From the NCBI GenBank assembly GCA_963749655.1, contig CAVVOB010000030.1, positions 1 through 64,000 of the forward strand: a DNA stretch of 64,000 nt, read 5' to 3'. Made by a program: the position numbers and the translations under genes. The notes under the pieces were generated by a model. That model worked only from the letters and a program-made list of their open reading frames with translations. It was not told where the DNA came from and ran no database searches. Source of the DNA: Nitrospirota bacterium. GTDB lineage: Bacteria; Nitrospirota; UBA9217. This document shows, piece after piece, positions 5,653 to 61,450 of the stretch (the first letter of the stretch is position 1; every line of letters begins with the position of its first letter).

Positions 5653-5755
5653 ATTGCGGATTGTAGATTTCGAATTGCGGAATGAAAATCGGGGTCAGTG
5701 TGCCGGTATTTAAGCGGTTTCACAAATCCGAAATCCGCAATTCACAATTCGAAAT
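5653..5755. repeat. Heptamer-periodic inverted repeat (ATTGCGG-type)
   Basis: attgcgg attgtag atttcga attgcgg ... tccgaaa tccgcaa ttcacaa ttcgaaa between cheY and cheA. Confidence 0.85.
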
Positions 5756-5761
5756 TTTATT

Positions 5762-7765
5762 ATGGCTAAATCCGACCGCTCCATAAAAGATTTTCTCGCA
5801 GAGGCCGAGGACATCCTGGAAGCCGCGAACCAGTCGCTGCTTGCGCTCGATGCGGCCGAGGCCGAGGGCAGGAGCGACCCGGACCAGGTGAATACCCTGT
5901 TCCGCGCCGTGCATTCCTTCAAGGGCCTGGCGGGCATGTTCGACCTGAAGGAGCCCCAGGAGCTTTCCCACAAGCTTGAATTTCTGCTCGACGAACTCCG
6001 CTTGGGCAAAGTGGCCCTGGGCCGCGACGTTCTCAACGTTCTCGGAGAAACGGTGGACCAGCTGGGCCTGCAGGTGCAGCAGGCGGGCAAGGGCAGGCCT
6101 TTCGACGACGTCTCGGCGGCCGTCGTGCGCATCGAGAACGTGCTCAAGGCGGCGCCGGCTGCGGCGTCGGGCAGGGACCTCGCCGAACAGATCAATCTCG
6201 ACCGAGGCATCCTGCAGGTCCTGACGGAATACGAGGAGCATCGGCTCCGCGAGTGCGTCCGTGCGCGGAAGAACCTTTTCCTCCTCAAGGTCGAGTTCGA
6301 CCTCGCATCGTTCGAGCCGGGCATCAAGGAGCTCAACGCGGCGCTGAAGAAGATCGGCGAGATCATCTGTACCCTGCCGACCGCCGGCGGCGGGGCGGGG
6401 ATCAGTTTTTCCATCGTCCTCGGTACGACCGAGAGCCGGGAAGCGGTTGCGTCAACGGTCACGACTCCTCACGCGACGATCGAGCCTGTCGAATATGCCG
6501 ACGGTCGGCGGTCGGAGGAGTCGAGAGCGGAGGCCGGCGCTCTCAAATCCGTGAGCAACACGGTGCGGGTGGACATCTTCCGCCTCGACAGCCTCATGAA
6601 CATCGTGGGCGAAATGCACATGATCAAAAACGTCGTAGGAAGGATCGTGAGGGAGCTGCGGTCCATCGAGGGGGTCGGCGCCCTGTCCTCTGACCTGCAC
6701 AAGGCCCAGCGTGCCATGGAGAGAAGGCTCAATGATCTTCAGGAAGGCATTCTCGATGTGAGGATGGTACCCGTGGGCCAGATTTTCACCCGTCTTTCCC
6801 AGGTCGTCCGGAGATACGTCCGGGAGGCGGGCAAGGAAATCGACCTTGAACTGCGGGGCGAAGAGACGGAGCTCGACAAGCTGATGATCGAAGACCTTGC
6901 AGACCCGCTCATGCACCTCATCAGGAACGCAATCGACCACGGGATCGAACCTCCCGAAATCCGCAAGGAGCGCGGCAAGCCCGAGCAGGGGCGAGTGGTC
7001 CTGAGCGCCTTTCCCAAGGGCAACCATGTGGTCATCACCGTCGAGGACGACGGCGCGGGCATCGATGCGGCCGACGTCCTTGCCAAGGCAGTCGAGAAGG
7101 GGCTGGTCCGGCCCGACCACGGACTGGACCTCCGGAACGACCGGAGGGAGATCCTGGAGCTGATATACCTGCCGGGATTTACGACCCGGGAAACCGTGAC
7201 CGAAATTTCCGGCCGCGGGGTGGGCATGGATGTCGTAAAGCGAAACGTTTCCAAGCTCTCCGGTATGATCGACATCCAGACCGAGCCCGGAGCCGGCACG
7301 GTCTTTACGCTGACGATCCCCATCACGCTCGCCATCATCAAGGCGCTGATCGTGGAAGCCGGCGGGCAGATCTTTGCGATACCGCTCAGCTCAGTGCTGG
7401 AGATCCAGCAGGCCGCCTCCGGGGACATTGAGACGGTCGAGGGCCGGGAGGTGAAGTCGGTCCGCGACGAGACCGTGCCGCTGCTGCGGATCACCCGGGT
7501 CTTTCATCTGGCCGAGCAGCGCGAGCGCGCCAGTTTCTACGTCATTCTCGTCGGCCTGGCCGAGCGCCGCGTCGGCATCATAGTCGACAGCCTGCGGGAC
7601 CAGCAGGAGATCGTGATCAAGCCTCTGGGCAAGCGGCTTTCCGACGTTCCGGGCATAGCCGGCGCAACCGAGCTCGGCGACCGCAGGGGCGTGGTGCTGG
7701 TCCTCGATGTGGAATCGCTCATCGAAGGGATGCTAAAGAAAACGGTCTTGTCGTCGATAAGATAG
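5762..7765 (+). CDS. cheA: Chemotaxis histidine kinase CheA
   Basis: Hpt FRAVHSFKG, HLIRNAIDHG, DDGAG, ISGRGVGMDVV, C-terminal CheW-like domain. Confidence 0.95.
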   Translation: MAKSDRSIKDFLAEAEDILEAANQSLLALDAAEAEGRSDPDQVNTLFRAVHSFKGLAGMFDLKEPQELSHKLEFLLDELRLGKVALGRDVLNVLGETVDQLGLQVQQAGKGRPFDDVSAAVVRIENVLKAAPAAASGRDLAEQINLDRGILQVLTEYEEHRLRECVRARKNLFLLKVEFDLASFEPGIKELNAALKKIGEIICTLPTAGGGAGISFSIVLGTTESREAVASTVTTPHATIEPVEYADGRRSEESRAEAGALKSVSNTVRVDIFRLDSLMNIVGEMHMIKNVVGRIVRELRSIEGVGALSSDLHKAQRAMERRLNDLQEGILDVRMVPVGQIFTRLSQVVRRYVREAGKEIDLELRGEETELDKLMIEDLADPLMHLIRNAIDHGIEPPEIRKERGKPEQGRVVLSAFPKGNHVVITVEDDGAGIDAADVLAKAVEKGLVRPDHGLDLRNDRREILELIYLPGFTTRETVTEISGRGVGMDVVKRNVSKLSGMIDIQTEPGAGTVFTLTIPITLAIIKALIVEAGGQIFAIPLSSVLEIQQAASGDIETVEGREVKSVRDETVPLLRITRVFHLAEQRERASFYVILVGLAERRVGIIVDSLRDQQEIVIKPLGKRLSDVPGIAGATELGDRRGVVLVLDVESLIEGMLKKTVLSSIR

Positions 7766-7815
7766 GGGTACGACCGGGGCGCCCGCAGGGGGGGCACGGT
7801 GACTCGGGGGGGGTT

Positions 7816-8610
7816 GTGTACGAGGAATTCTACAGCCTGACGGAAAAACCATTCAACAAGACGCCTGACCCGCGATTCCTCTACCAGAGCCGGAAGCATG
7901 CTGAAGCGCTTGCACGGATCCAGCATGCCGTCGAAGAGCAGGACATCGTGCTGCTGACCGGCGAGATCGGGTCGGGGAAAACAACGCTCTCCCGGGCATT
8001 CATCGATTCTCTTGACAACAGCTATCATCCTGCGCTGATCATCAACCCCCGTTTTTCGCCGGCGCAGCTCCTGCATACGGTCGCGCTGCGTCTCGGTATG
8101 GACCATACGCCGCGGCATCGGCACGAGCTCCTGGAAGGGATCAATGCCAAGCTCTTTGAACTTTACGAAGCCTCGCGTCGCCCGGTGATCATCATCGACG
8201 AGGCCCAGCTCATTCCCGGCAAGTCGACCTTCGAAGAGCTGAGGCTGCTCACCAATTTCCAGCTGGACGACAGAAATCTCCTGGCGATCGTGCTGATCGG
8301 CCAGACTGAGCTGCGCGAGCGCCTGAACCGCAAACCGTACCGTGCCCTCCGGCAGCGCATCGGGATGCAGTATCACCTGGGCGCGCTCGATCGCGACGAT
8401 ACGGAGTCCTATGTCGTTCACCGGCTCCGGGTGGCGGGAAGGATGGCACCTCTGTTCGACGCAGCCGCCCTTTCGCTCATCTATGAGCATTCCGGCGGCA
8501 TTCCGCGCCGCATCAACATTATCGCGGGAAATGCTCTGGTCGAAGGGTTCGGGAGAGGGGTTTCGACCATAGGACCGGAGATCATCGAAAGCGTGGTCAA
8601 CGACTCATAG
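7816..8610 (+). CDS. ExeA/GspA-type AAA+ ATPase
   Basis: YEEFYSLTEKPF..TPDP, Walker A GEIGSGKT, IIDEAQ, GGIPRRIN. Confidence 0.9.
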   Translation: MYEEFYSLTEKPFNKTPDPRFLYQSRKHAEALARIQHAVEEQDIVLLTGEIGSGKTTLSRAFIDSLDNSYHPALIINPRFSPAQLLHTVALRLGMDHTPRHRHELLEGINAKLFELYEASRRPVIIIDEAQLIPGKSTFEELRLLTNFQLDDRNLLAIVLIGQTELRERLNRKPYRALRQRIGMQYHLGALDRDDTESYVVHRLRVAGRMAPLFDAAALSLIYEHSGGIPRRINIIAGNALVEGFGRGVSTIGPEIIESVVNDS

Positions 8611-8694
8611 GCAGAGAGCAGAGAGCAGAGAGCAGAGAGCAGAGAGCAGAGAGCAGAGAATCCTCCCCTCTGCGCCATGCCTTATGCGCTTTGC
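8611..8694. repeat. Heptamer-periodic inverted repeat: (GCAGAGA)x7 plus degenerate complementary arm
   Basis: Seven perfect copies at 8611-8659; cctctgc gccatgc cttatgc gctttgc at 8667-8694. Confidence 0.9.
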
Positions 8695-8722
8695 ATGTTT
8701 TTGTAACAGGAGTCAATGCGAT

Positions 8723-9370
8723 ATGGATATTCTGGCAGCCCGAAAAAAGGCGGCTGAAAAAGCGCGTTCTCAGAAAAGCCCGGAAACCGCGGCGACTGAG
8801 GCGACCGTCTCCGCTCCGGACACGGGCGCTCCGACGCTTCGGGCTGACGAGCAGGTTCCGGCTCCGCCTGCAGCAGGGACGTCCGCGGACAACGCGCCGG
8901 AGGAGGCCGATGGGCTCGGGACCGGAGATACTGCGGCTGAGCAGGCGCCGCTTGAAGAGGTTGAGCTGTTGTCCTTCCGCCTCGGCGACGAGCACTATGC
9001 CGTGATGGTCGACGATGTGCGGGAGGTCCTCAAGCCCCGCGATCTCACGCCGGTGCCGAATACGCCGGATTATGTGCTGGGCGTCACATCGCTCCGGGGC
9101 ACGATGCTGCCGGTCGTCGATCTGTGCATTCGCCTCGGTCTGGCGCCGGGCGTCCGTGACGAGAAATCACGGATCATTGTGATCAGTCCCGACGAGGAGG
9201 ATGTAGGACTTCTGGCTGACCGGGTAACCGGGGTGTTCCGGGTGTCGCCCGATGCCGTCAAGCCGGCTCCGGAAAACATCGAGCAGGGCGCCGAGTTTCT
9301 GCGGGGCATCGTGCGCAAGGACGACAGGCTGTTTATCCTGCTCGACGTAGGGAAAATAACGGGGGTATAA
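8723..9370 (+). CDS. cheW: CheW with disordered N-terminal extension
   Basis: LLSFRLGDEHYA, VPNTPDYVLGVTSLRGTMLPVVDL; AGGAG RBS favours ATG 8723. Confidence 0.9.
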   Translation: MDILAARKKAAEKARSQKSPETAATEATVSAPDTGAPTLRADEQVPAPPAAGTSADNAPEEADGLGTGDTAAEQAPLEEVELLSFRLGDEHYAVMVDDVREVLKPRDLTPVPNTPDYVLGVTSLRGTMLPVVDLCIRLGLAPGVRDEKSRIIVISPDEEDVGLLADRVTGVFRVSPDAVKPAPENIEQGAEFLRGIVRKDDRLFILLDVGKITGV

Positions 9371-9459
9371 ATTGCAGATTGCGGATTGCGAATTGCGGAC
9401 CACGCACCGGAGGCGTACAATCGTTCGCGGCCGACATTTGCAGCCCGAAATCTACAATT
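9370..9459. repeat. Heptamer-periodic inverted repeat (ATTGCGG-type)
   Basis: attgcag attgcgg attgcga attgcgg ... cccgaaa tctacaa t. Confidence 0.75.
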
Positions 9460-9478
9460 GAGAAGGAGGTATAAGACA

Positions 9479-12100: not shown

Positions 12101-12183
12101 GGGCCGATGACGCAGCGTACGGCGGTTCTCGGCAGCATCAGCCGTACGACAGAACACTATCCGATTACTGACGGGAGGTAGTC

Positions 12184-13191
12184 ATGGACAACGAAGTGCA
12201 ATGGAAAAAATGGATAGCGATGGCGGTCCTCGGCCTGTTCTTTGCGGTCGGGTGCGCGACGCTCAAGGAATCGCGGGCGATCCTGCCGATCAAGGAATAC
12301 GAAAAATTGATCGCCGGACGTCTCGACGCCGACTATATCGGCACGGATGCATGCCTCAAGGCCTGCCACAATCACGATAAGACCCGGCGCGATTTCGATC
12401 TTTCCACCATGGGCGCCCAGCTCTCGAGGGAATCGGGGCTGCCCCTGGTGAACTGCGAGAGCTGCCATGGAGCAGGAAGCCTGGCGATCGAGAACCTTAC
12501 CCCGGACAAGATAGCGGCCGATGCCCGGGCCGGAAGGAAGACCGCCTGCGACTTCAAAACATTTGTAGACATCAAAAACCTGCCTGCGCAGGCGAAGTCG
12601 CTGATCTGCCTCAAGTGTCATTCCGCGAATGCGACCTTCAACCTGCACAACTGGAACTCGAGCGTCCACAGCCTCGCCGACGTTTCGTGCTCCGACTGCC
12701 ATCCCATCCACGGGACCCACAACCTGAAGGTCCGGGCGCGGGACATGGCGGACATGTGCGACAAATGCCATCCCGACGTGCAGGCCGCGTTCAGGCTGCC
12801 CAACCACCATCCGGTGCCGGAGAAGAAGGTGTTCTGCAACGACTGCCACGACCCCCACGGCGGAACCAACGAAAAGAGCCTGAGGCGGGACACGGTCAAG
12901 GCCACCTGCACGCAGTGCCATGCGGAAAAAGAGGGCCCGTTCCTGTATGAGCATGCCGACGTCACTGAGGACTGCAGGACCTGCCATACGCCGCACGGCT
13001 CGGTCAACAACAGGCTGCTCAAGATGCGCGAACCGTTCCTGTGCCTGCAGTGCCACGCCTCGCACCGCGTCGGCAGTTCGACGAGCACGGAGACCAAGAC
13101 GGCCTACTACACACGCTGCACCGACTGTCATTCACAAATCCACGGAACGGACCTGCCGTCGACGAGCGGCAAGGGCAACTTTACGCAATAA
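12184..13191 (+). CDS. DmsE/MtrA-family decaheme cytochrome c (lipoprotein-type N-terminus)
   Basis: 9 CxxCH + 1 CxxxCH; CHAEKEGPFLYEH and CHSQIHG motifs typical of MtrA; AVGC lipobox. Confidence 0.88.
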   Translation: MDNEVQWKKWIAMAVLGLFFAVGCATLKESRAILPIKEYEKLIAGRLDADYIGTDACLKACHNHDKTRRDFDLSTMGAQLSRESGLPLVNCESCHGAGSLAIENLTPDKIAADARAGRKTACDFKTFVDIKNLPAQAKSLICLKCHSANATFNLHNWNSSVHSLADVSCSDCHPIHGTHNLKVRARDMADMCDKCHPDVQAAFRLPNHHPVPEKKVFCNDCHDPHGGTNEKSLRRDTVKATCTQCHAEKEGPFLYEHADVTEDCRTCHTPHGSVNNRLLKMREPFLCLQCHASHRVGSSTSTETKTAYYTRCTDCHSQIHGTDLPSTSGKGNFTQ

Positions 13192-13203
13192 GGAGGCTCG
13201 ACC

Positions 13204-15108: not shown

Positions 15109-15120
15109 CGGGAGGGACGG

Positions 15121-28061: not shown

Positions 28062-28090
28062 TTGATAATTTATCGTGACTCGACTATAAT
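28062..28090 (+). promoter_or_regulatory. Internal sigma70-like promoter
   Basis: TTGATA-17 nt-TATAAT upstream of the GAF gene. Confidence 0.55.
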
Positions 28091-28218
28091 TGTTGCTATT
28101 GCACTGTTCGCAGGGTCGAGAGTGCCGTAGTGCGGGCAGCAGGGACCATTGTCGTCCCGGACCATGGTCCGGACGGCGGAGCGAAGGCATCCTGATCGGC
28201 TGCAACGGGAGGGCATCA

Positions 28219-29043
28219 ATGGAAAAAGAACCCGCATCGATTTCGAAAAAGGTGGAGGAATTTCTCCAGGTCTTCAAGAAAGGCGAGGAATTCACGCAGG
28301 AGCTGCTGAAGGAAAACGAAAAGCTCCGTTACCGGCTCGCCCAGCTCGAGGAAGTAACCAAATTTTCCGACCGGGAAGGAACGTTCAAGGTCCATTCCCT
28401 TGAGGAGCGCATCAAGTTTCTGGAGGATGAAAACAAAAGCCTCATCGAACGCTATCGCGTCGTCGAGGAGGAGAACAAGGACTTCGCCAACCGCTATATC
28501 GAGGTCGAGGCGGAAAACAACAACCTGGCCAACCTCTACGTGGCAAGCTACCAGCTGCACTCCACCCTCGATTTCAGCGAGAGCCTCAAGATCATTCTCG
28601 AAATCGTCATGAACCTCATCGGCGCAGAGGAATTTTCGATCATGATGCTCGATGAAAAGACCAACGAACTGACCATTGTGGCCCAGGAGGGCATGGGGCC
28701 CGAGGCCCGCGCCAGCGTCAAACTGGGAGAGGGAATCATCGGCGGGTCAGCCAAGTCGGGCGAGGCGTTCTATCGTGAGGGCGATCCGAAGAACCTGCAG
28801 GGAGTGGATTACCTCCACCCGCTCGTCGTCATTCCGCTCAAGATCAAGGAGCATGTGATCGGCGTCATCGTGATCTACAAGCTTCTGGTGCAGAAGGAGC
28901 AGTTCACCAACGTGGATTACGAACTCTTCACCATGCTTGCCGGCCATGCGGCCACAGCGCTCTTTTCCTCAAAGCTCTACTCGCAGTCGGAGCGGAAGCT
29001 CACCACGATCCAGAGCTTTCTTGATCTGCTGAAGGAAAAATAA
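28219..29043 (+). CDS. Coiled-coil + GAF domain protein
   Basis: N-terminal coiled coil; LANLYVASYQLHSTLDF; PLKIKEHVIGVI; LAGHAATAL; GGAGG RBS. Confidence 0.85.
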   Translation: MEKEPASISKKVEEFLQVFKKGEEFTQELLKENEKLRYRLAQLEEVTKFSDREGTFKVHSLEERIKFLEDENKSLIERYRVVEEENKDFANRYIEVEAENNNLANLYVASYQLHSTLDFSESLKIILEIVMNLIGAEEFSIMMLDEKTNELTIVAQEGMGPEARASVKLGEGIIGGSAKSGEAFYREGDPKNLQGVDYLHPLVVIPLKIKEHVIGVIVIYKLLVQKEQFTNVDYELFTMLAGHAATALFSSKLYSQSERKLTTIQSFLDLLKEK

Positions 29044-38528: not shown

Positions 38529-39107
38529 GTGAAACAGGCGATCAGAAAACAGGCTCTGGCAGCGCGCGACAGCATGCCGACGGAACAGCGGAGAAAGAAG
38601 AGCCGGGAGATTGAAGAACGGCTCTTTGCCCTTCCTGAATTTCAATCGGCGCGGGTCGTCATGTTCTTCGCTTCATTCCGCAGTGAAGTCGAAACTGAGC
38701 CGATGATCCTCCGGGCGCTCCGGGCCGGCAAACGGGTGGTCCTGCCGAAAGTAACAGGCAAGGAACTTGCCTTATACGAGATCGGGGATTTCGGCGCCGA
38801 TATGGAAAGAGGCGCATGGGGAATCCCGGAACCGAAGACGTTCGCTCCCGCGAAGCTGGATGAGATCGATCTCATCATCATGCCGGGCGCGGCTTTCGAC
38901 GAGCAGGGAAACCGGCTTGGGTACGGCGCGGGTTTTTATGACAAGCTGCTGTCCGCATTCAAGCGAACAGCCGTCGCACTTGCTTTTGAAGCGCAGATCG
39001 TATCGAATGTTCCCGTTGCTCCCCATGATATTCCGGTCGGAAAGATCGTGACCGAGAAAAGGGTAATAACAACGCAGAGGGCAGAGGGCAAAGGGCAGAG
39101 AGCATAG
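38529..39107 (+). CDS. 5-formyltetrahydrofolate cyclo-ligase
   Basis: [29 protein letters not shown]. Confidence 0.95.
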
Positions 39108-39152
39108 CGCGTGGGGCAAAAGCAGTTACGCTAGGCCCCCTCCGCACTCTGC
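39074..39152. repeat. Heptamer-periodic inverted repeat (GCAGAGG-type) overlapping the 3' end of the cyclo-ligase gene
   Basis: gcagagg gcagagg gcaaagg gcagaga gcatagc ... cctccgc actctgc. Confidence 0.8.
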
Positions 39153-42695: not shown

Positions 42696-42713
42696 CAGCA
42701 AAAGATCATTTTA

Positions 42714-42811
42714 GCCACAGAGAACACAGAGAACACAGAGGACACAGAAGTAATGAAAAAGTTCAGGCTTCGCTGTAAATTTATATTTTTTCCCTCTGTG
42801 ACCTCTGTGGC
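42714..42811. repeat. 9-mer-periodic inverted repeat (CACAGAGAA-type)
   Basis: gccacagagaacacagagaacacagaggacacag ... ctctgtgacctctgtggc between metV and metF. Confidence 0.85.
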
Positions 42812-42845
42812 AATAAATAGGTTTTATTCCTGGAGGTATTGATAG

Positions 42846-43823: not shown

Positions 43824-43853
43824 CGTGAGGAGTGAGGAGTTAGGCGTAAGGGG
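43824..43853. repeat. Heptamer repeat, purine arm only (GTGAGGA-type)
   Basis: gtgagga gtgagga gttaggc gtaaggg after metF. Confidence 0.7.
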
Positions 43854-44791: not shown

Positions 44792-44821
44792 TTGACTCAC
44801 CAGATGGGTGCTCGCTATAAT
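44792..44821 (+). promoter_or_regulatory. Sigma70-like promoter upstream of thyX
   Basis: TTGACT-18 nt-TATAAT. Confidence 0.55.
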
Positions 44822-45637: not shown

Positions 45638-45720
45638 AGGGGCAAGGGGCCAAGTAGCAAGGGGCCAGGGAACAGTGAACGACGTTTCCGGACCCCGTGC
45701 CACCTGGTCCTTGGACCCTG
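45638..45720. repeat. Approximately 8-mer-periodic inverted repeat (GGGCCAAG-type)
   Basis: ggggcaag gggccaag tagcaag gggccagg ... cctggtcc ttggaccc. Confidence 0.7.
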
Positions 45721-45733
45721 AAGTCAAGGTCCC

Positions 45734-46505
45734 ATGGGTTTCACCATAGCAGTTGCAGGCAAGGGCGGCACGGGCAAGACCAGCCTCTGCGGCCTGACCA
45801 TTCGATATTTGACAGAGAAGAAAAAGGGGGCCGTGCTCGCCGTCGACGCCGACGCGAACGCAAACCTCCACGACGTGCTCGGGGCTGAATGTCCACGCCA
45901 CGGTCGGCCGGCTGCGGGAAACCTCTCTCGAAGCCATCAAGTCCACTGCTCCGCGTCCGGGCGGCATGAGCATGGAGCAGCTCTTCGATTACCAGATCCA
46001 GCAGGCGCTCGTCGAGGCAAGAGGCTTCGACCTGCTCGTCATGGGCAGGCCCGAGGGCGCGGGCTGCTACTGCGCGGCAAACAACATCATCCGCAAATAC
46101 ATGGACAAGCTGGCCGACACCTATCCCTACACGGTGATGGACAACGAGGCCGGTCTTGAGCATCTTTCCCGCCGCACGACGCAGGACACGGACCTGCTCA
46201 TGATCATCAGCGATTCTTCGGTGCGCGGCATCATGACCGCGGGCCGGATCGGCGGACTGGTCAAAGAGCTGAATCTGAACGTCAAGCGAACGGTGCTGAT
46301 CGTGAACCGCGTGCAGGACGGCACCAGAGAAGACAAGGCGCTTCTCCAGGCGATCGGACAGCAGGGCGTGGAATTCGCGGGCTTTGTTCCCGCAGACGAG
46401 ATGATCTTTGAATACGACTTGAACGGCAGGCCGCTTGTCCAGCTTCCTGCAGATTCGAAGGCGCTGAAGAGTTTTTTCACCATCATGGACAAGCTCGTGC
46501 CGTGA
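45734..46505 (+). CDS. cooC: Second CooC/AcsF ATPase (apparent +1 frameshift near 45884)
   Basis: GKGGTGKT in the first frame; GRPEGAGCYC and DNEAGLEHLSR in the second; one extra G in GGGG joins them. Confidence 0.85.
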
Positions 46506-46589
46506 AGCGTGAAAAGTAAGAGGTGAAACGTGAAACGCACGCCGCAGCCGGCTTTTTACATTTTCCTTTTCACGTTTAACGTTTCACGC
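46501..46589. repeat. Heptamer-periodic inverted repeat (CGTGAAA-type)
   Basis: cgtgaag cgtgaaa agtaaga ggtgaaa cgtgaaa ... tttcacg tttaacg tttcacg. Confidence 0.85.
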
Positions 46590-46594
46590 CGCTC

Positions 46595-47479
46595 ATGAAC
46601 AAAACCGTCGCCATCATAGGCGCAGGCCGTGTCGGCAGCTCAATCGGTTTTCTGCTGAAACAGGCAGGATACCCGATAGCGGCGGTGACGGCCCGTTCGA
46701 CGGCATCCGCGGAAAAAGCAGCGGCTGTTGTAAGCGGGGCAGAGCCCCTGACGGATGTGGTAAAGGCGGCGTCGCGGGCCGACATCGTTCTTATCACAAC
46801 GCCGGACCGCGCGATCAAAGAGGTGTGCGACACGATCGCAGCGGGCGGAGGGTTCAAAAGAGGCTCCCTGGTCGCGCATACCTCGGGGGCCCATACGCTG
46901 GACCTTCTTGAGGCGGCTTTAACGCGCGGCGCGAAGCGGGCGGTTATTCATCCGCTTCAATCCGTGCCGAGCGCGGAGCAGGGCATTCGGACGCTCCCGG
47001 GATCGTATTTTCGCATCGAAGCCGATTCCGAGGCGCTGGCAACGGCGCGCAGCATCGTCGGGGCGCTGGGCGGAATCGAACTGGAGATGCCGAAGTGGAG
47101 CTCCGACCAGGACTCCGCAGCCCTCTACCATGCGGGCGCAGTTGCGGTATCCAATTATTTCGTAGCCCTTGTTGATTACGGATTGAAGTTTTACGAGGCG
47201 CTGGGAGCGGACAGGAAAGAGGCGCTCAAGGCTGTTCTGCCGCTCATCAAGGGGACGCTTCATAACATGGAAACCCTGGGCGTCCCCGGGGCACTGACGG
47301 GGCCGATCATGCGGGGCGACGGCGAAACGGTGAAGCGTCATCTGGACGCCATGGAGCGGCGTACTCCGGAGCTTATGCGTCTCTACCGGGAACTGGCAAT
47401 CCAGACGGTCAGGTCAGCCAAGGATAAGGGCAGTATAACGGCGCAGACGGCGGAAGAACTGCTTAGGTTACTTCGGTGA
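46595..47479 (+). CDS. Rossmann-like + DUF2520 protein (PanG-type ketopantoate reductase candidate)
   Basis: IIGAGRVG, HTSGA, HPLQS, LYHAGAV..SNY, LTGPIMRGD. Confidence 0.85.
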   Translation: MNKTVAIIGAGRVGSSIGFLLKQAGYPIAAVTARSTASAEKAAAVVSGAEPLTDVVKAASRADIVLITTPDRAIKEVCDTIAAGGGFKRGSLVAHTSGAHTLDLLEAALTRGAKRAVIHPLQSVPSAEQGIRTLPGSYFRIEADSEALATARSIVGALGGIELEMPKWSSDQDSAALYHAGAVAVSNYFVALVDYGLKFYEALGADRKEALKAVLPLIKGTLHNMETLGVPGALTGPIMRGDGETVKRHLDAMERRTPELMRLYRELAIQTVRSAKDKGSITAQTAEELLRLLR

Positions 47480-47549
47480 GGAGTCAGGCGTAAGGAGTGA
47501 GGAGATTTTTCTCTGTTTTTCCCCTTACTCCTAACATTTCACTCCTCAC
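47476..47549. repeat. Heptamer-periodic inverted repeat (GTGAGGA-type)
   Basis: gtgagga gtcaggc gtaagga gtgagga ... cccttac tcctaac atttcac tcctcac. Confidence 0.88.
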
Positions 47550-49408: not shown

Positions 49409-49485
49409 GTAAAGAGCATAGTGCAGAGCGCATAGTGCAGAGCGCAAAGCGTAAGTGTTCTACGCCATGCTCCATGCCCTCTGCG
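49409..49485. repeat. Heptamer-periodic inverted repeat (GCA.AG-type)
   Basis: gcatagt gcagagc gcatagt gcagagc gcaaagc ... gccatgc tccatgc cctctgc. Confidence 0.82.
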
Positions 49486-49526
49486 AAATCATAAATTATT
49501 GATTCTTCTGTAAAGGAGTAAATAAC

Positions 49527-50874: not shown

Positions 50875-50940
50875 GTGAGGCGTGAGGAGTGAGGAGTGAG
50901 GGGTTGCTTATTCCCCTTACGCCTAACCCCTTACTCCTTC
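50875..50940. repeat. Heptamer-periodic inverted repeat (GTGAGGA-type)
   Basis: gtgaggc gtgagga gtgagga gtgaggg ... cccttac gcctaac cccttac. Confidence 0.88.
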
Positions 50941-50964
50941 CGGCATTTCTAAAGGAGTCGTTCC

Positions 50965-53917: not shown

Positions 53918-53919
53918 GG

Positions 53920-54039
53920 CGTGAAACGGGCAACGTAAAACGTAAAACGTGAAACGGGTAACGTCAAGCGTGAGATGTAAGATCTTGTACCTTTCCCCTT
54001 TCACGTTTTGTCTAACCTTTCACGTCTGACGTTTCACGC
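53920..54039. repeat. Heptamer-periodic inverted repeat (CGTGAAA-type, about 9 units in left arm)
   Basis: cgtgaaa cgggcaa cgtaaaa cgtaaaa cgtgaaa cgggtaa cgtcaag cgtgaga ... tttcacg tctgacg tttcacg. Confidence 0.88.
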
Positions 54040-54054
54040 ATTTTTGGGGTGACC

Positions 54055-55833: not shown

Positions 55834-55840
55834 TCGAACC

Positions 55841-55875
55841 GTCAGGAGTCAGGAGTGAGGAGTCAGGAGTCAGGT
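55841..55875. repeat. Left heptamer arm flanking the four-helix-bundle gene
   Basis: gtcagga gtcagga gtgagga gtcagga gtcaggt. Confidence 0.9.
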
Positions 55876-55883
55876 GAAAAGGA

Positions 55884-56249
55884 ATGGACAAGCCACACAA
55901 AAAATTGAATGTGTGGAAGTCGGCCATTGAGCTTGTACTCGAAATATACCAGCTTACTCAGTTGTTTCCGGGAGAAGAAAAATATGGTCTCGCCAGCCAG
56001 ATGAAACGGGCCGCCGTCAGCGTGGCTAGCAACATAGCGGAGGGCGCAGCGAGAAAGACAAAGAAGGAATTTATTCAATATCTGCACATGGCACAAGGTT
56101 CAATCAGTGAATTGGATACGCAGCTTGAAATAACAAAACAACTTAAGTACGTACCAGTAGACAGGGTGTCTGCGGTAGATGTGTTGATGGAGAAAACAGA
56201 CAAAATGCTGAGCGGATTAATTAAACATCAGCAATCTCCTCACTCCTGA
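55884..56249 (+). CDS. Four-helix-bundle protein (23S rRNA IVS protein / bAvd-like family)
   Basis: L.VW, FP.EEKYGL.SQ..RAAVSVASNIAEG, F.QYL..A.GS..ELDTQL; AT-richer than its neighbours. Confidence 0.92.
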   Translation: MDKPHKKLNVWKSAIELVLEIYQLTQLFPGEEKYGLASQMKRAAVSVASNIAEGAARKTKKEFIQYLHMAQGSISELDTQLEITKQLKYVPVDRVSAVDVLMEKTDKMLSGLIKHQQSPHS

Positions 56250-56264
56250 CACCTTACTCCTTAC
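56237..56264. repeat. Right heptamer arm (complementary to 55841-55875), contains the gene's stop codon
   Basis: tcctcac tcctgac accttac tccttac. Confidence 0.9.
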
Positions 56265-56288
56265 TAAACGAACGAATGCGGAGTAAAG

Positions 56289-58961
56289 ATGGCTAACCTC
56301 ACTATAAATGGAAAACAAATAACGGTACCTGACGGCACCACGGTACTCGACGCCGCGCGCCGGAACGACATTTACATCCCGACGCTCTGCGACGACCCGC
56401 GGCTCGAGCCCTACGGCGGCTGCAGGCTCTGCCTCGTTCAGATCAAGGGCATGCCCCGTCCGGTCACGGCCTGCACCACGCCGGTCACCGAGGCCATGGA
56501 AGTGGAGACCTCGAACGCGCAGATCGAGCGGCAACGGCGCACGATCGTGGAGCTTCTGCTCTCCGACCACCCGAACGACTGCATGGTGTGCGAGCGGGCC
56601 GGCGACTGCACGCTCCAGGAGCTTGCTTACTTCCACGAAATCCGCACGAACCGCTTTGCCGGTGAGCGCCGGACCTATGCCAAAAAGGACGCGAATCCCT
56701 TCATCGAACGGGACATGGAAAAATGCATCCTCTGCGGCAAGTGCGTGCGGGTGTGCGAGGAGATCCAGGGCGTTGCCGCAATCGACATCGCGAACCGCGG
56801 ATTTACGGCAAAAGTTGCCACGGCCTTCGAGAAGGACCTGAACTGCGAGTTCTGCGGCCAGTGCGTTTCCGTCTGCCCCACCGGCGCGCTGATGGGCAAG
56901 GAGTCGCTGGGCAAGGGCAGGCAGAAGGACGTGAAGCAGGTGGAGACCGTGTGCTCCTACTGCGGCTGCGGCTGCAACCTGACGCTCCACGTGAGCAGGA
57001 ACGAAGTGGTGCGCGTCACGTCGCGCCCCGACACGGTGAACGAGGGCTGGCTCTGCGTCAAGGGCCGCTTCGGATTCAGTTTCATCAACAGCCCCGACAG
57101 GCTCACGACGCCGCTCATCAGGAAGGACGGCAAGCTCGTTCCCGCCTCGTGGGACGAGGCGTTCGGGTACATCGTCGACAAACTCACCGCCATCAAGGCG
57201 AAGCACGGCCCCGACGCCATTGGCGGCCTCTCCTCGGCCCGGTGCACGAACGAGGAAAACTACCTGTTCCAGAAATTCATCCGCGCGGGGATCGGCACGA
57301 ACAACGTCGATCACTGCGCGCGCCTCTGACACAGCTCGACTGTGGCCGGTCTGGCCACCGTATTCGGCTCCGGGGCAATGACGAACTCGATCGCCGAGAT
57401 CGAGAACAATGACGCGCTGTTCGTCATCGGCTCGAACACCAAGGAAAGCCATCCCATCATCGCGCTCCGCATGATCAAGGCAAAGCGCAAGGGCGCCAGG
57501 ATCATCGTTGCCGATCCGCGGCGGGTGCCGATGGTGCGCTTCGCCGACATCTGGCTGCAGCACCGCCCGGGCACCGACGTCGCGCTCCTGAACGGCATGA
57601 TGCACGTGATCGTGAAGGAAGGCCTTGTCAAGAAAGACTTCATCGAAGCCATGACCGAAGGATTCGACGACGCATTCCGAAAGAACCTCGAAACCTACAC
57701 GCCCGAGGCAGCGTCGAAGATCACCGGCGTTCCAGCGGACCTGATCGTGAAGGCGGCCCGCATGTACGGCAGTGCCGAGCGGGCGGGCATCTATTACACC
57801 ATGGGCATCACCCAGCACGCCCACGGCACGGAGAACGTGTTTTCCATCGCCAACCTGGCCCTCATGACCGGAAACCTCGGCAAGGAGAGCGCAGGCGTCA
57901 ACCCGCTTCGCGGACAGAACAATGTCCAGGGCTCGACGGACATGGGCTGCGTGCCGAACAACTATCCCGGCTATCAGCGCGTCACCATCCCGGCGATCCG
58001 GGAGAAGTTCGAGGCCCTCTGGAAGGTGAAACTCTCGGACAAGGAAGGCATGACCGCTACGGAGATGATCCCGGCCGCGGAGAAGGGCTCTCTGAAGGCG
58101 CTGTATATCATGGGTGAGAACCCCGTGGTCTCGGACCCCAACTGCGCTCACACCGTGAAGGCGCTCAAAACGCTCGAGCTTCTGGTGGTCCAGGACATCT
58201 TCATGACCGAAACGGCGGAGCTGGCGCACGTTGTCCTGCCCGGCTCATCCTTCGCCGAGAAGGTCGGAACGTTCACGAACACCGAGCGCCGCGTCCAGCG
58301 GGTGAGAAGGGCGGTCAACTCGCCCGGGCTTGCCATGAAAGACTCGCTCATTATCATGGAGCTGTCGAAGCGCATGGGCTATGAAATGAACTACTCGCAC
58401 ACCGTCGAGGTCTTCCGCGAGATCGGCCAGGCCTGGCCTGCTCTTGCCGGCATGAGCTACGCGCGGCTCGAGGACGGGGGGCTGCAGTGGCCCTGCCCCA
58501 CGCACGATCATCCGGGCACGCAGTTCCTGTTCAAGGGCGGGTTCCCGCGCGGGAAGGGGCGTTTCTCGCTCGTTACGTTCAAACCGTCCCATGAGGAGAC
58601 GGACAGCGAGTATCCGTTCCTCCTGACCACCGGACGGACGCTCTTCCAGTATCACACCGGCACCATGACCAGGCGCGTCAAGGCGATCAACACGATATCG
58701 CCCGAGGCCTTCATCGAGATCAATCCCGAGGACGCAAAGGCCCTTGCCGTCCGGGAGGGCTCGAGCGTGAAGGTCAGCTCGCGGCGCGGTGCGATCACGC
58801 TCAAGGTCATGGTGTCCAAGCGGCCCGCGAAAGGCGTCGTGTTCATCCCCTTCCATTTCAAGGAAGCGGCGGCCAATGCGCTCACGAGCGCCAAGGCCCT
58901 TGATCCGATCGCAAAAATTCCGGCCTTTAAAGTATCGGCAGTAAGAATCGAACAGGCATGA
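56289..58961 (+). CDS. fdhA: Selenocysteine-containing formate dehydrogenase alpha subunit with NuoG-like N-terminal Fe-S domains
   Basis: ORFs 56289-57329 and 57342-58961 are in frame: DHCARL-TGA-HSSTVAGL; CSYCGCGC, PLRGQNNVQG, GTFTNTERR. Confidence 0.93.
57342..57358 (+). promoter_or_regulatory. Bacterial SECIS hairpin
   Basis: GTGGCC-GGTCT-GGCCAC 12 nt after the in-frame TGA (57327-57329); similar to the fdhF SECIS. Confidence 0.85.
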
Positions 58962-58963
58962 CC

Positions 58964-59069
58964 CGGGAGACGTGAGACGTTAAACGTGAAACGGGAGACG
59001 GGAGAAACAATGCCCGTTGAACTAAAGATGAGTAAGAGGTTCATTTTCGTTTCACCTCTCACCTTGCAC
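58964..59069. repeat. Heptamer-periodic inverted repeat (CGTGAGA-type)
   Basis: cgggaga cgtgaga cgttaaa cgtgaaa cgggaga cgggaga ... tttcacc tctcacc. Confidence 0.8.
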
Positions 59070-59084
59070 ACCGAGGAGGACCGC

Positions 59085-59543
59085 ATGGCCGACAAGTTGG
59101 AACTCAAGCAGCAGATTCTCTTCAGCGAACTGACGGACGCAGAGCTTGGCATGATCGCTCAGAAGGTCGTAGTCGAGAACTACCGCAAGGGGCAGCCGAT
59201 CTTCAGGGAAGGCGAACCCACAAAGGGAATCTATTTGCTCAAGGCCGGCAAGGTCGAGATCTCGAAGAACACCGCAGACGGATGGAAGCAGACCCTCGCG
59301 ATCCTCGTGGAAAATCATATCTTCGGCGAGCTTTCGGTCATCGAAGACAAGCCGAAGCACGGCGCAGACGCCACGGCCATTGAAAACACCGATGTGTACC
59401 GCATCAAGACCGAGGACTTCAAGGCCTTCGAAAAAAGCGACGCGGCCATGATGTACAAGATCATGAAGACCATCGCCCGCATTGCCAGCAAGAACGTGCA
59501 CTCCATGAACGAAAAGCTGATGAAGCTCCTGATCAGCTACTGA
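59085..59543 (+). CDS. Stand-alone cyclic-nucleotide-binding domain protein
   Basis: IFREGE, YLLKAGKVEI, FGELSVI; no HTH; GAGGAGG RBS. Confidence 0.85.
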   Translation: MADKLELKQQILFSELTDAELGMIAQKVVVENYRKGQPIFREGEPTKGIYLLKAGKVEISKNTADGWKQTLAILVENHIFGELSVIEDKPKHGADATAIENTDVYRIKTEDFKAFEKSDAAMMYKIMKTIARIASKNVHSMNEKLMKLLISY

Positions 59544-59548
59544 GAAGC

Positions 59549-59612
59549 CGTGAAATGTGAGGAGTAAGGCGAGAGGTCGTTTTAATCTCCTTACTCCTAA
59601 CACCTTACTACT
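59549..59612. repeat. Heptamer-periodic inverted repeat (GTGAGGA-type)
   Basis: gtgaaat gtgagga gtaaggc gagagg ... tccttac tcctaac accttac. Confidence 0.82.
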
Positions 59613-59647
59613 ACTGAATTTTACTTTTCGAAAAGGGAGGTAGACGA

Positions 59648-61415
59648 ATGGCACTCGATCCAACGAAGCATGCAGACTGGGAAATTGCGGAAGATTCAGA
59701 AACACGAATGAAGCCGATCACCGAGATCGCGAAGAAGATGGGGCTCAACGACGACGAGCTTCTGCTGCACGGTCACTACATCGCCAAGGTGGATTTCAAG
59801 AAGGTGCTGAAGCGCTTCGAGGGCAAGCCCGACGGCAAATACATCGACGTCACGGCCATCACCCCGACGCCGCTCGGCGAAGGCAAGTCCACCTCCACCA
59901 TCGGCCTCACCCAGGGCCTGGGCAAGCGCGGCAAGAACGTGATCGCCGCGATCCGCCAGCCTTCGGGCGGCCCGACCATGAACATCAAGGGCTCGGCGGC
60001 CGGCGGCGGCCTTTCGCAGGTCATCCCGCTCACGCCGTTCTCCCTCGGCCTCACCGGCGACATCAACGCCATCATGAACGCCCACAACCTCGCCATGGTC
60101 GCGCTCACGTCGCGGATGCAGCACGAGTTCAACTACAACGACGAGCAGCTTGCGAAGACGGAAACTGAAGCGCCTCAACATCGACCCGCACAACGTGGAG
60201 ATGAAGTGGATCATGGACTTCTGCGCCCAGTCGCTGCGCGAGATCGTCATCGGCATGGGCGGCAAGACGAACGGCTTCATGATGAAGTCCGGCTTCGCCA
60301 TCGCCGTGTCGTCGGAAGTGATGGCCATCCTCGCCGTCGCCAGGGACCTGAAGGACATGCGCGAGCGCATGGGCCGGATCGTCGTGGCCTACAGCAAGGA
60401 CGGCTCCCCGGTGACGACCGAAGACCTCGACGTCGCCGGCGCCATGACCGCCTGGATGGTCGAGGCCCTGAACCCGAACCTGCTCCAGACCATCGAAGGC
60501 CAGCCCGTGTTCGTGCACGCCGGCCCCTTCGCCAATATCGCCATCGGCCAGTCCTCGATCATCGCCGACCGCATCGGCCTGAAGCTCGGCGACTACGTCG
60601 TGACCGAGTCCGGCTTTGCCGCCGACATCGGCTTCGAGAAGTTCTGGAACCTGAAGTGCCGCATCTCGGGCCTGAAGCCCCATGCCGCCGTGGTCGTCGC
60701 CACGATCCGCGCGCTCAAGTGCCACGGCGGCGCGCCCATCCCGGTGCCGGGCAAGCCCATGCCCGCGGAATACAAGGGCGAGAACGTCGGCTGGGTCGAG
60801 AAGGGCTGCGAGAACCTCATCCACCACATCAAGACCGTGAAGAAGGCGGGCATCAATCCCGTGGTCTGCATCAACGCCTTCTACACCGACACGGACAACG
60901 AGATCAAGGCCGTGCGGCAGGCTCGCCGAGGCAGCAGGCGCCCGCGTGGCCCTTTCCCGTCACTGGGAAAAGGGCGGCGACGGCGCCCTGGAATTCGCCG
61001 ACGCCGTCGTCGACGCCTGCAACGAGAAGAACGACTTCAAGCTTCCTCTATGAGCTCGATACCCCGCTCCGGAAGCGCATCGAGCTGATCGCCAAGGAAG
61101 TGTACGGCGCCGACGGCGTGGACTATACCCCTGAGGCCGAGGCAAAGGCGAAGAAGATGGAAGCGGACCCCGAGACCGCCAAGCTCGGCACCTGCATGGT
61201 GAAGACCCACCTGTCGCTCACGGACAACCCGATCCATCAAGGGCGTGCCCAAGGGCTGGAGGCTCCGCATCCGCGACATCCTGACCTACAAGGGCGCGGG
61301 CTTCGTCGTCCCGGTGGCAGGCACGATCACGCTCATGCCCGGCACGTCGTCCGACCCGGCCTATCGCCGCGTGGATGTGGATGTGGAGACGGGGAAGGTG
61401 AAAGGCGTGTTCTAA
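59648..61415 (+). CDS. fhs: Formate-tetrahydrofolate ligase (apparent +1 frameshifts near 60157, 60921, 61042, 61232)
   Basis: [46 protein letters not shown]; segments are collinear across frames. Confidence 0.9.
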
Positions 61416-61421
61416 TAAAAC

Positions 61422-61450
61422 AGTGAGAAGTAAAAAGTGAGAAGTCAGGT
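61422..61450. repeat. Heptamer repeat, purine arm only
   Basis: agtgaga agtaaaa agtgaga agtcagg. Confidence 0.6.

Follow-up and report, generated by a model that had tools for sequence, protein, structure and literature searches.

Do the heptamer-periodic elements at the gene junctions of this Nitrospirota DNA tune the operons that hold them, or do they derive from something mobile? For the window, meaning the whole stretch of 64,000 nucleotides analysed here, a preliminary description had reported a family of such elements and read them either as mRNA processing or stability signals that set subunit stoichiometry or as empty derivatives of a mobile cassette. The observation is real and was partly confirmed, and the interpretation is partly supported: the operon gaps contain hairpin inserts that resemble gene-less kin of a small mobile cassette originally found in ribosomal RNA genes. 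The comparison then made with the STRR repeats of cyanobacteria, originally described in 1990, was apt.

Heptamer arrays in the window and the genome

Arrays were sought at the named coordinates with TRF, which detected them at 5724, 8611, 9371, 39074, 43825, 46501/46568, 49416, 50875, 53920/54010, 55841/56236, 58967, and 61422, while those at 5653, 47476, and 59549 are evident from direct reading of the sequence; a period-7 array was thereby confirmed at all 15 named sites. Inverted arms were detected at 47476, 46501, 53916, 55847, and 59543. The window contains a single complete cassette (55841-56265), alongside which stand about 16 arrays or hairpins that lack the gene. When the 11 named hairpins were folded as sense RNA against shuffles, z was -2.2 or lower in eight; the site at 9370 gave an intermediate value, and those at 39074 and 58964 folded no better than shuffles.

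A hairpin with ATTGCGG-type arms (5651..5756; z -2.81) lies between a response-regulator gene and cheA, an array of seven perfect GCAGAGA units that faces a weak right arm (8611..8700; TRF score 98; z -3.02) lies between an AAA-ATPase gene and cheW, and a weak ATTGCGG-type hairpin found by TRF (9371..9458; z -1.73) precedes a multihaem cytochrome gene. The GCAGAGG array at 39074..39152 (z -0.70) overlaps the 3' end of the 5-FTHF cyclo-ligase ORF. At least two elements had been missed, a hairpin of 9-nt units (CACAGAGAA) between a MetF-associated gene and metF (42700..42825; inverted arms; z -3.64) and a GGGGCAA/GGGGCCA hairpin directly after the thyX stop codon (45638..45721; TRF at 45638-45670 and sequence reading). 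The CGTGAAA hairpin at 46501..46589 (TRF and inverted arms; z -2.76) has the upstream stop codon inside its first unit, and its junction measures 3-10 nt in 12 relatives and 23 nt in one more. GTGAGGA hairpins separate a DUF2520 gene from acsE (47476..47549; 30-nt arms, 77%; z -6.27, the best of the named set) and acsC from the acetyl-CoA synthase gene (50875..50941; TRF; z -3.33), and a hairpin of compound GCATAGT/GCAGAGC units precedes acsC (49409..49490; TRF; z -2.22). Further along are a CGTGAAA/CGTAAAA hairpin between the nuoE-like and nuoF-like genes (53918..54042; inverted arms; z -2.70), a GAGACGT array, likewise weak in its right arm, downstream of fdhA (58964..59075; TRF; z -0.99), and a GTGAGGA/GTAAGGC hairpin before fhs (59549..59615; inverted arms; z -2.71). 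The two sites given as single arms are indeed so: a G-rich GTGAGGA arm upstream of panB forms no hairpin (43825..43852, + strand; TRF; z -1.30), and a G-rich AGTGAGA arm follows the fhs stop codon (61416..61445, + strand; TRF and sequence). The stem at 61457..61493 (+ strand; fold z -5.28) was rejected as a family member, being an ordinary intrinsic terminator with a GC stem and a U tail. No terminator-like site was found at the elements on the + strand, in line with the reported lack of U-tails.

The genome is a Nitrospirota MAG (86.6% complete, 5.8% contamination). The genome-wide search, which the preliminary description had proposed, detected 394 period-7 arrays at a threshold of 16 of 21 matches, against 3 in a block-shuffled genome; arrays of at least four units at 85% self-match or better numbered 161 with period 7, while every other period in the range 4-15 gave 0-6. 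Within 600 nt, 172 of the 394 arrays have a partner that is their reverse complement (15 of 18 or better), against 20 of 394 in a reversed-only control. Neighbouring arrays stand in G-then-C order 58 times and in C-then-G order once, and of the single arrays, 66 have the G-rich strand as sense and 32 do not. The left arm had been described as purine-rich, which fits just 68 of 107 genome-wide arm pairs; the actual rule is that G exceeds C in the left arm (100 of 107), a G-rich arm coming first and a C-rich arm second. Since such a palindrome is its own reverse complement, the constant polarity relative to transcription that had been reported is uninformative from the arms.

A small number of units are widespread, each occurring at 15-79 loci. 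In the largest families, GGAATGC, GAGTTTT, ATTGCGG, and GTGAGGA, a unit never has more than two G in a row; the GGGTCAA/GGGGCAA family contains G-tracts. Unit variation, previously put at about two positions, is confined mostly to 1-3 positions per heptamer; in GT-N-AGG-A, position 3 is A in 33%, C in 31%, and G in 34%, and the remaining positions are 79-99% conserved. In-phase runs peak at 4-5 units and then collapse (17 to 1, 31 to 1, 38 to 4), a sharp cut-off found in four unit families, and lengths in the GCANAGN family are long-tailed. The loops are unique, with only 3 similar pairs among 77. These data support the proposed structure-defined family, in which one architecture, with 4-5 heptamers per arm and the G-rich arm first, is built from many unit sequences.

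The PF05635 cassette and the gene-less arrays

The cassette carries a gene (55884..56249, + strand) for a 121-aa four-helix-bundle protein between a 5' arm of five GTCAGGA units (55841..55877; TRF; 31 nt, 84% complementary) and a 3' arm that overlaps the gene end (56235..56265; inverted-arm detection), and a fold of the whole cassette spacer pairs the two arms (z -3.73). This cargo protein matches Pfam PF05635 (E 5e-37), NCBIfam TIGR02436 (E 1e-35), and PDB 2GSC (E 7e-28). XCC0516 of X. campestris is its nearest solved relative, and the solved relatives 2GSC and 2RLD were both deposited with five chains. We know of no catalytic activity of PF05635 proteins. The tail behind the cassette (56266..56288, + strand), which includes the fdhA ribosome-binding site and a GAATGCGGAG remnant, also occurs in L004 and L005, in elements that have no gene.

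Five of the six PF05635 loci in the genome are flanked by inverted heptamer arms, with a different unit family at each. Inverted repeats reaching 14 of 16 or better flank 52 of 65 such loci (5 own and 60 from relatives), whereas the control yields 2 of 65; in 35 of these 52 both arms have period 7, and G-first order prevails over C-first by 41 to 1. The PF05635 gene has the orientation of its neighbours in 19 cases and the opposite in 2.

The arrays elsewhere in the genome resemble these cassettes. Of 384 non-cassette arrays, 61.7% differ by no more than one mismatch from an arm unit of the five resident cassettes, whereas random sets of five foreign cassettes match 14.7% (sd 5.6, maximum 33.6) and none of 1000 sets reaches 61.7%; 38% of the arrays have no match among the resident cassettes. 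The same comparison is weak in relatives, where just 1-3 cassettes were sampled per genome: 9 of 65 arrays match cassettes of their own genome, against 4.3 expected. Arm-unit identity follows PF05635 protein identity (Mantel, 0 of 2000 permutations). Across 50 relatives, the more PF05635 matches a genome has, the denser the arrays in its orthologous operon tend to be (Spearman 0.52-0.55, uncorrected for phylogeny), and relatives with 0-1 matches, at 5 arrays in 399 kb, have about tenfold fewer than the others (75 in 592 kb). No PF05635 gene remnant was detected in the 77 loops of gene-less elements. The idea of empty derivatives of a mobile cassette therefore stands as to kinship, by the common heptamers, and as to mobility, by the replacements between near-identical relatives described below, but not as to an origin by deletion; with unique loops that lack gene remnants, neither whole-element copy-and-paste nor descent by deletion is established.

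Placement, turnover, and competing explanations

According to gene calls made within the analysis, which are crude, the 5' arm starts a median of 4 nt past the upstream stop codon (n=84), and 90 arm pairs have co-directional flanking genes (72 expected), 12 convergent (14.4), and 4 divergent (19.6). The elements avoid promoter-only, divergent spacers, and their slot lies between stop codon and ribosome-binding site. Long housekeeping operons (Wood-Ljungdahl, dcw, recA-alaS, dnaX-por, and gsp) are rich in arrays. Of 80 nuoF>fdhA junctions compared, 54 measure 2-21 nt and 22 are filled, the units differing by lineage, and complete hairpins fill junctions otherwise of 2-3 nt independently in several lineages. 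Between L035 and L061, four flanking genes are 95-97% identical and two spacers 88% and 95%, but two further spacers, at just 41% and 50% identity, contain hairpins that belong to different families. Elements are thus gained and swapped at one slot over a few percent of nucleotide divergence. The L035/L061 replacement could reflect homologous recombination with a diverged strain instead of transposition, and no target-site duplication is visible. The presence/absence comparison found no conservation of the elements across relatives; presence, family, and sequence vary at the same junction.

We lean, with little more than even confidence, towards reading the elements as gene-less members of a palindromic insert family whose full form is the PF05635 cassette, selfish or near-neutral and not tuned regulators. 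The complete form would be a cassette of about 400-500 nt in which arrays of 4-5 heptamers, inverted relative to each other, enclose the four-helix-bundle gene; the gene-less copies share heptamer types with cassettes resident in the same genome. A tight junction may accommodate a hairpin because the fold would hold both flanks near each other. RNase III cuts mid-way in the 28-bp stem of the Coxiella burnetii intervening sequence, which also bears heptamers (PMC4990558), and an RNase III gene is present in this genome; by analogy, the long imperfect stems in operon mRNA are probably RNase III substrates. Cleavage would split the polycistronic RNA at the elements and free the cassette's own mRNA. 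The PF05635 protein is suspected to be a family-specific partner of the arms.

It is unlikely that the elements are plain STRR-type simple-sequence repeats, grown in place by slippage and forming hairpins by chance head-to-head placement, with no movement and no protein. Slippage would suit the long-tailed GCANAGN lengths, the difference in unit number between the close relatives L033 and L036, and the perfect GCAGAGA array, and such perfect arrays show that it also acts on arrays here; repeat number varies among Coxiella strains as well (PMC4990558), and long prokaryotic repeats of this kind are most often heptamers, per work cited in PMC4679880. It does not explain the recurrence of certain units at many loci, the 4-5-unit limit, the G-then-C order, the match to resident cassettes, whole-element replacement between 96%-identical genomes, or complete hairpins in tight junctions. 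Host-selected RNA processing or stability signals that set relative protein amounts within an operon seem just as improbable. The location in transcribed spacers (4 of 106 divergent) beside stop codons, the G-rich sense strand of single arrays, and the density in housekeeping operons agree with them, as does the control of hmw1A in H. influenzae by RNase III processing of a heptamer-repeat hairpin (PMC12721329). Against them, the same junction is empty or holds unrelated families in close relatives, two named stems fold no better than shuffles, variable positions are no more complementary within elements than between them (0.77 vs 0.76; 0.69 vs 0.67), and sense folding has no advantage over antisense (44 vs 38 of 82, p=0.30). 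The stoichiometry proposal is accordingly not borne out: with neither arm covariation nor conservation across relatives, the elements look like selfish inserts.

More doubtful still are arrays of DNA or RNA binding sites for a ring-shaped multimer, PF05635 or a host factor, with a cellular role and a secondary hairpin; nucleoid organisation and translational coupling are the roles envisaged. Position-specific conservation within units across many loci (e.g. GT-N-AGG-A) and the 4-5 units per arm beside the five-chain depositions would fit, and so would the co-divergence of arm units and protein, although simple co-inheritance of gene and arms would equally yield the latter, and a cellular role leaves the rapid replacement and patchy presence among relatives unexplained. 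Very improbable are G-quadruplex-forming repeats, as proposed for Xanthomonas GGGAATC. The G-rich strand comes first, one family has G-tracts, and related units form G-quadruplexes in vitro (Rehm et al. 2015, PMC4692102), but units of the four largest families have no more than two adjacent G.

Comparison with known systems

The closest parallels and contrasts lie in five systems. The long heptanucleotide repeats of cyanobacteria and Beggiatoaceae (TAACTGA) are likewise intergenic tandem heptamers, often just upstream of starts and patchily distributed, and are described in PMC4679880 as direct repeats only (1 indirect among 170 sets in the Beggiatoa genome), whereas the elements here are as a rule paired in inverted orientation, have arms of fixed size, and include a form that carries a gene. 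The hmw1A 5'-UTR of Haemophilus influenzae also has a heptamer-array arm in a long RNase III-processed RNA hairpin, but as reported in PMC12721329 it is a single locus with a role in phase variation, with no dispersed family or cassette, and its polarity is reversed, with pyrimidine-rich repeats on the left and the G-rich arm on the right.

REPIN-RAYT systems share abundant extragenic hairpin-forming inverted doublets, the link of each family to one single-copy gene between its own repeats with gene-repeat co-evolution, and the landing of new elements in or beside old ones (Bertels and Rainey 2011, PMC3116915). The gene here encodes a four-helix-bundle protein instead of a tyrosine transposase, with arrays within 1.2 kb at 0 of 9 Y1_Tnp loci, and the arms are tandem heptamers around loops that are not conserved among copies. 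The GGGAATC repeats of Xanthomonas and those of Nostoc are likewise dispersed intergenic heptamer arrays, with 70-75 pairs "in convergent orientation", G-rich strand first, near the upstream ORF end, few between divergent ORFs, and with length and sequence differing markedly among close relatives (Rehm et al. 2015, PMC4692102). That study interpreted them as G-quadruplex motifs, found no link to mobile elements, and nowhere mentions xcc0516, 23S, or S23 (PMC4692102). Most units here are not G4-capable, fall into many families, and match resident PF05635 cassettes.

The 23S rRNA intervening sequences of Coxiella burnetii, and of Leptospira as cited with them, likewise carry a PF05635/S23p gene in the loop of a terminal-inverted-repeat stem, with variable-number heptameric repeats adjoining the ORF, inside a host transcript (PMC4990558). 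The window cassette differs in standing between the nuoF-like and fdhA protein genes and not in 23S helix 45, and in its arms of pure heptamer arrays, alongside which the genome holds hundreds of gene-less arrays.

Heptamer arrays and their placement in operons

The 4.27-Mb assembly (39 contigs, 86.6% complete, 5.8% contamination) contributes the first 64 kb of contig C30 as the window, where Pfam assignments outline two blocks of co-directional genes that house the elements, i.e., intergenic hairpins composed of a G-rich heptamer arm, a loop, and a C-rich arm. The chemotaxis block lies at 4–12 kb, and the folate/Wood-Ljungdahl block (38–61 kb) encodes 5-FTHF cyclo-ligase, GTP cyclohydrolase, an HdrA-like protein, MetF, PanB, ThyX, AcsE, CdhD/AcsC, acetyl-CoA synthase, NuoE/F-like proteins, FdhA, a cNMP-binding protein, and Fhs. 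The formate dehydrogenase gene (56289–58961) consists of two ORFs (56289–57329 and 57342–58961) with Pfam domains spanning the break, and the split also occurs in relatives, which points to a probable in-frame selenocysteine codon. A CooC/MinD-like P-loop gene 3' of thyX (45734–46505) is divided between two overlapping frames (45734–46159 and 45966–46505), the result of a frameshift or of misassembly. A frameshift in fhs (59648–61426), suspected on the basis of our crude gene calls, was ruled out, as the full-length ORF aligns with those of relatives end to end. Upstream of thyX lies the region's best sigma-70-like match (44792–44821; TTGACT, 18 nt, TATAAT; 11/12), a possible internal promoter of the block, and a tandem repeat (28423–28538; 42-nt unit, 2.8 copies, 71% matches) is located within ORF 28090–29043.

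The period-7 arrays reported in the preliminary description were recovered as TRF calls or, at the remaining named sites, are visible in the sequence, and 43824 and 61422 indeed carry single arms only. Two hairpins had been omitted, one with 9-nt units (42700–42825) and one with heptamers (45638–45721). In sense-RNA folding, z was ≤ −2.2 for eight of the 11 named hairpins, with the strongest value (−6.27) at 47476; among the other three, one reached −1.73, and those at 39074 and 58964 folded no better than shuffled sequences. The elements lack U tails, as had been stated, with no terminator-like site on the + strand at any of them; the hairpin at 61457–61493, downstream of the 61422 arm, is an ordinary intrinsic terminator separate from the elements.

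A genome-wide search revealed period-7 inverted arms far beyond chance. With at least four units and at least 85% self-match, 161 arrays have period 7, compared with 0–6 for every other period from 4 to 15, and the excess persists at other thresholds. At a cut-off of 16/21 matches, 394 arrays were detected versus three in a block-shuffled genome, and 275 of the 394 fall outside ORFs in a genome of which 78% is called coding, according to our own crude gene calls. A reverse-complement partner (at least 15/18 matches) was located within 600 nt of 172 of the 394 arrays versus 20 of 394 in the reversed-only control, and merging yielded 107 paired elements genome-wide.

The arm richer in G than C comes first in 100 of these 107 pairs. 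The preliminary description had called the left arm purine-rich, which fits poorly, as the purine excess comes first in just 68 pairs; its constant polarity relative to transcription is uninformative, because a palindrome of G-arm, loop, and C-arm is its own reverse complement and the arms therefore carry no strand information. Among arrays taken alone, neighbors no more than 150 nt apart are ordered G-then-C in 58 cases and C-then-G in one (p about 2e-16), and an equivalent "convergent" order is described for the GGGAATC repeats of Xanthomonas (Rehm et al., PMC4692102). Stop codons in three frames were rejected as a general cause of period 7 or of the G-first order, since none of the 79 GGAATGC arrays has such stops.

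The first arm begins a median of 4 nt past the upstream stop codon (IQR −3 to 17.5, n = 84). Genes flanking the pairs are co-directional in 90 cases, convergent in 12, and divergent in four, against 72, 14.4, and 19.6 expected from spacer length, and the deficit in divergent spacers is significant (p = 1.3e-5). For single arrays, the sense strand is the G-rich one in 66 cases and not in 32. The arrays are also clustered, with seven 20-kb bins holding at least eight arrays versus 0.12 bins expected, and the dense bins correspond to long housekeeping operons (dcw, recA-recX-pilT-alaS, dnaX-ybaB-recR-porCAB, and gsp). At 39063–39107, the 5-FTHF cyclo-ligase ORF extends 16 residues beyond its Pfam domain into a GCAGAGG array, an insert that apparently took the place of the original C-terminal end and stop codon.

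By unit, the arrays comprise the families GGAATGC (79), GAGTTTT (79), ATTGCGG (34), GTGAGGA (31), GCAGAGA (19), GGGTCAA (15), and others (137). Unit variation is position-specific, as previously noted: position 3 of GTGAGGA is A in 33%, C in 31%, and G in 34% of units, and the other positions are 79–99% conserved. In-phase runs peak at four to five units and then collapse in four of five families (GTNAGGN, 17 to 1; GGAWTNN, 31 to 1; GGGNCNN, 16 to 1; NAGTTNN, 38 to 4), GCANAGN being the sole family with an SSR-like long tail of run lengths. When arms of the same element were compared with other arms of the family at the variable positions, no covariation was detected (likeness within versus between elements, 0.77 versus 0.76, n = 7; 0.69 versus 0.67 in a second family, n = 12), and a G·U-based strand test revealed no difference between sense and antisense folding (44 versus 38 of 82, p = 0.30), indicating that pairing is a property of the family consensus only. 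At about 193600–193800 on contig C12 (G000), a GAGTTTT-type hairpin is nested within GCAGAGA/ATGCTCT-type arms, which suggests that the loops of existing hairpins serve as insertion sites for newer ones.

PF05635 cassettes and their arm units

The cassette of the window (55841–56265) carries on the + strand a gene (55884–56249) for a 121-aa protein of PF05635/TIGR02436 (Pfam E 5e-37), the "23S rRNA intervening-sequence protein" family. Its arms of GTCAGGA units (31 nt, 84% complementary) form the closing stem when the 455-nt cassette spacer is folded (z −3.73). Five of the six PF05635 loci in this genome lie between inverted heptamer arms, each locus with its own family. In a sample of 65 loci, made up of the five resident cassettes and 60 mostly top-scoring ones among the matches listed for 50 relatives, flanking inverted repeats (at least 14/16) were found at 52 loci versus 2/65 in the control. 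Period 7 is present in both arms at 35 of the 52, and the arm order is G-first at 41, C-first at one, and ambiguous at 10. Period seven is usual, not obligatory: cassette arms at five loci from relatives (L103, L109, L112, L120, and L122) have 9-nt (GTTTGAACC-like) or 8-nt units, and the 9-nt arms resemble the hairpin with 9-nt units at 42700–42825. The PF05635 gene is co-oriented with its neighbors at 19 loci versus two (of the 52, 27 lack orientable flanks and four have short flanks), which fits a promoter-less gene using host transcription.

Protein identity and arm-unit identity vary together (Mantel test, 0/2000 permutations). The heptamers are within one mismatch in nine of 11 pairs of proteins that are 60–80% identical and in 3–6% of pairs below 50% identity; those of the single pair above 80% are not. 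The most telling link to PF05635 is that 61.7% of the 384 non-cassette arrays differ by at most one mismatch from arm units of this genome's own five cassettes, while random sets of five foreign cassettes match 14.7% (sd 5.6, maximum 33.6) and 0/1000 sets reach 61.7%. With one to three cassettes sampled per genome, the own-cassette match in relatives is weak (9/65 versus 4.3 expected, p = 0.03). Across 50 genomes, the number of PF05635 matches correlates with array density in the orthologous operon (rho 0.52–0.55, p about 1e-4, kinship ignored), and genomes with zero or one match contain five arrays in 399 kb, compared with 75 in 592 kb in the others. IS200/RAYT-type genes are not involved: none of the nine loci encoding a Y1 transposase (PF01797) has an array within 1.2 kb, a count that by itself has p = 0.18 given a random expectation of 17% per 1.2-kb window.

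Turnover of the elements among relatives

Relatives were recruited with the NuoF-like protein, and nearly all are titled Nitrospirota or Thermodesulfovibrionia MAGs. Their junctions proved empty or differently filled, close relatives included. The nuoF–fdhA junction measures 2–21 nt in 54 of 80 loci, mostly 2–3 nt in the form stop-NNN-ATG, and is filled with 38–1487 nt in 22, four further loci falling in neither class; no tblastn match (E ≤ 1e-8) to the PF05635 protein of the window was found at any of the 80 orthologous-operon loci. The fillings differ by lineage (ATTGCGG, GTGAGGA, AATGCGG, GACGCGG, GGGATTC, and AATGTAA types) and include one small two-gene insert and one case due to gene fusion. 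The ORF pair at this junction in L020 (11076–11668) and L021, encoding 73 and 129 aa, looks by eye like an antitoxin/PIN-toxin pair, and the junction seems to draw other small selfish inserts too. In L022 (10001–13108), the NuoF-like protein carries a fused C-terminal extension of roughly 440 aa (1035 aa in total) that has the look of a pyridine-nucleotide oxidoreductase.

The end of the cassette, GAATGCGGAGTAAAG-ATG, also occurs in gene-less elements of two relatives' loci (L004 and L005), a shared tail which suggests that the cassette lodged in an older element. At the 46501 junction, 12 loci have 3–10 nt, one has 23 nt, and 11 have 50–117 nt. Identity of flanking genes and spacers was compared for two locus pairs. 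In L035 and L061, four flanking genes are 95–97% identical and two spacers 88% and 95%, while identity falls to 41% in the cdhD–acsC spacer and 50% in the acsC–acs spacer, which contain hairpins belonging to unrelated families; the stop codon and the ribosome-binding site are the exact limits of the exchanged segment. The acsE–cdhD (~400 nt) and acs–nuoE "spacers" were excluded, being long in all relatives and probably the result of mis-set gene starts. No target-site duplication was seen by eye between filled and empty junctions, none of these pairs being near-identical.

Interpretation and comparison with known systems

The preferred reading places the elements in the PF05635 cassette family as members that lack the gene; they would be selfish or near-neutral, fast-moving inserts in operon spacers. 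The earlier proposal of empty derivatives of a mobile cassette agrees with this reading in the match of heptamers to resident cassettes and in the turnover; no PF05635 gene remnant was found in the 77 loops (at least 20 nt). Just three pairs of these loops are alike, and such uniqueness argues against simple copy-and-paste; allelic recombination could underlie some of the swaps. The other role proposed earlier, tuning of subunit stoichiometry, is not supported, since the junctions of close relatives are empty or refilled and no covariation links the arms. Cleavage of operon mRNA by RNase III at the elements is likely by analogy, as the stems resemble those of rRNA intervening sequences, which are RNase III substrates (PMC4990558), and the genome encodes an RNase III (272.8 bits). 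The elements reshape operon spacers, substitute new surroundings for ribosome-binding sites, and probably break up polycistronic mRNAs, which is relevant to annotation, operon prediction, and the interpretation of metatranscriptomes from uncultured anaerobes, this Wood-Ljungdahl Nitrospirota lineage among them.

We know of no enzymatic activity of the PF05635 protein. Both solved relatives, 2GSC and 2RLD, contain five chains, which, together with arms of four to five units, suggests a ring that may read one arm. A broader and rather unlikely reading would make PF05635 proteins the specificity partners of a widespread, unrecognised class of mobile hairpins, in a layout paralleling RAYT-REPIN with a non-enzymatic five-subunit ring that reads four to five heptamers. 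Every PF05635 paralogue would then maintain its own array family, new elements would home to the slot between stop codon and ribosome-binding site or to the loop of an older hairpin, and rRNA intervening sequences, cyanobacterial STRRs, and the Xanthomonas GGGAATC repeats would form one system. To our knowledge, neither dispersed bacterial heptamer repeats nor the very large PF05635 family has found an explanation in decades, and one genome here ties them together by four lines, namely counts, unit sequence, co-divergence, and turnover.

STRRs are heptanucleotide simple-sequence repeats of cyanobacteria. The arrays share with them tandem 7-nt units that are dispersed and mostly intergenic; however, slippage predicts no preferred length, whereas four to five units are preferred in four of five families here. 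The convergent pairs of Rehm et al. (2015) have close arrays with the G-rich strand first, as observed here, but their units contain at least three consecutive G and are G-quadruplex-capable, whereas G-runs of at least three occur here only in the GGGTCAA family (15 arrays) and are absent from GGAATGC, GAGTTTT, ATTGCGG, and GTGAGGA. Among solved structures, XCC0516 comes closest to the PF05635 protein of the window, and the Xanthomonas heptamer paper contains no mention of xcc0516, 23S, or S23 (PMC4692102). A collection scan for three GGGAATC units, 300–330 nt, and two GATTCCC units carries little weight, the spacing being guessed; it returned 19 loci, in 16 of which the longest inner ORFs have no Pfam match, those of the other three being long frames of flanking genes. 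No report linking PF05635 to dispersed heptamer arrays was found in searches of the open-access literature.

Intrinsic terminators combine a GC-rich perfect stem with a U tract, whereas the stems of the elements carry periodic mismatches. REPIN-RAYT systems consist of hairpin doublets tied to a repeat-flanked Y1 gene, whereas PF05635 is the flanked gene here, at five of six loci. Copies of REPINs or MITEs are alike throughout, including the internal sequence, in contrast to the unique loops of the elements. The MAG contains no assembled 23S rRNA. With the intervening sequence of 23S rRNA, the window shares a PF05635 ORF within stem-forming terminal inverted repeats, at 55841–56265 only; that sequence sits in a 23S helix, whereas the cassette lies between the nuoF-like and fdhA genes.
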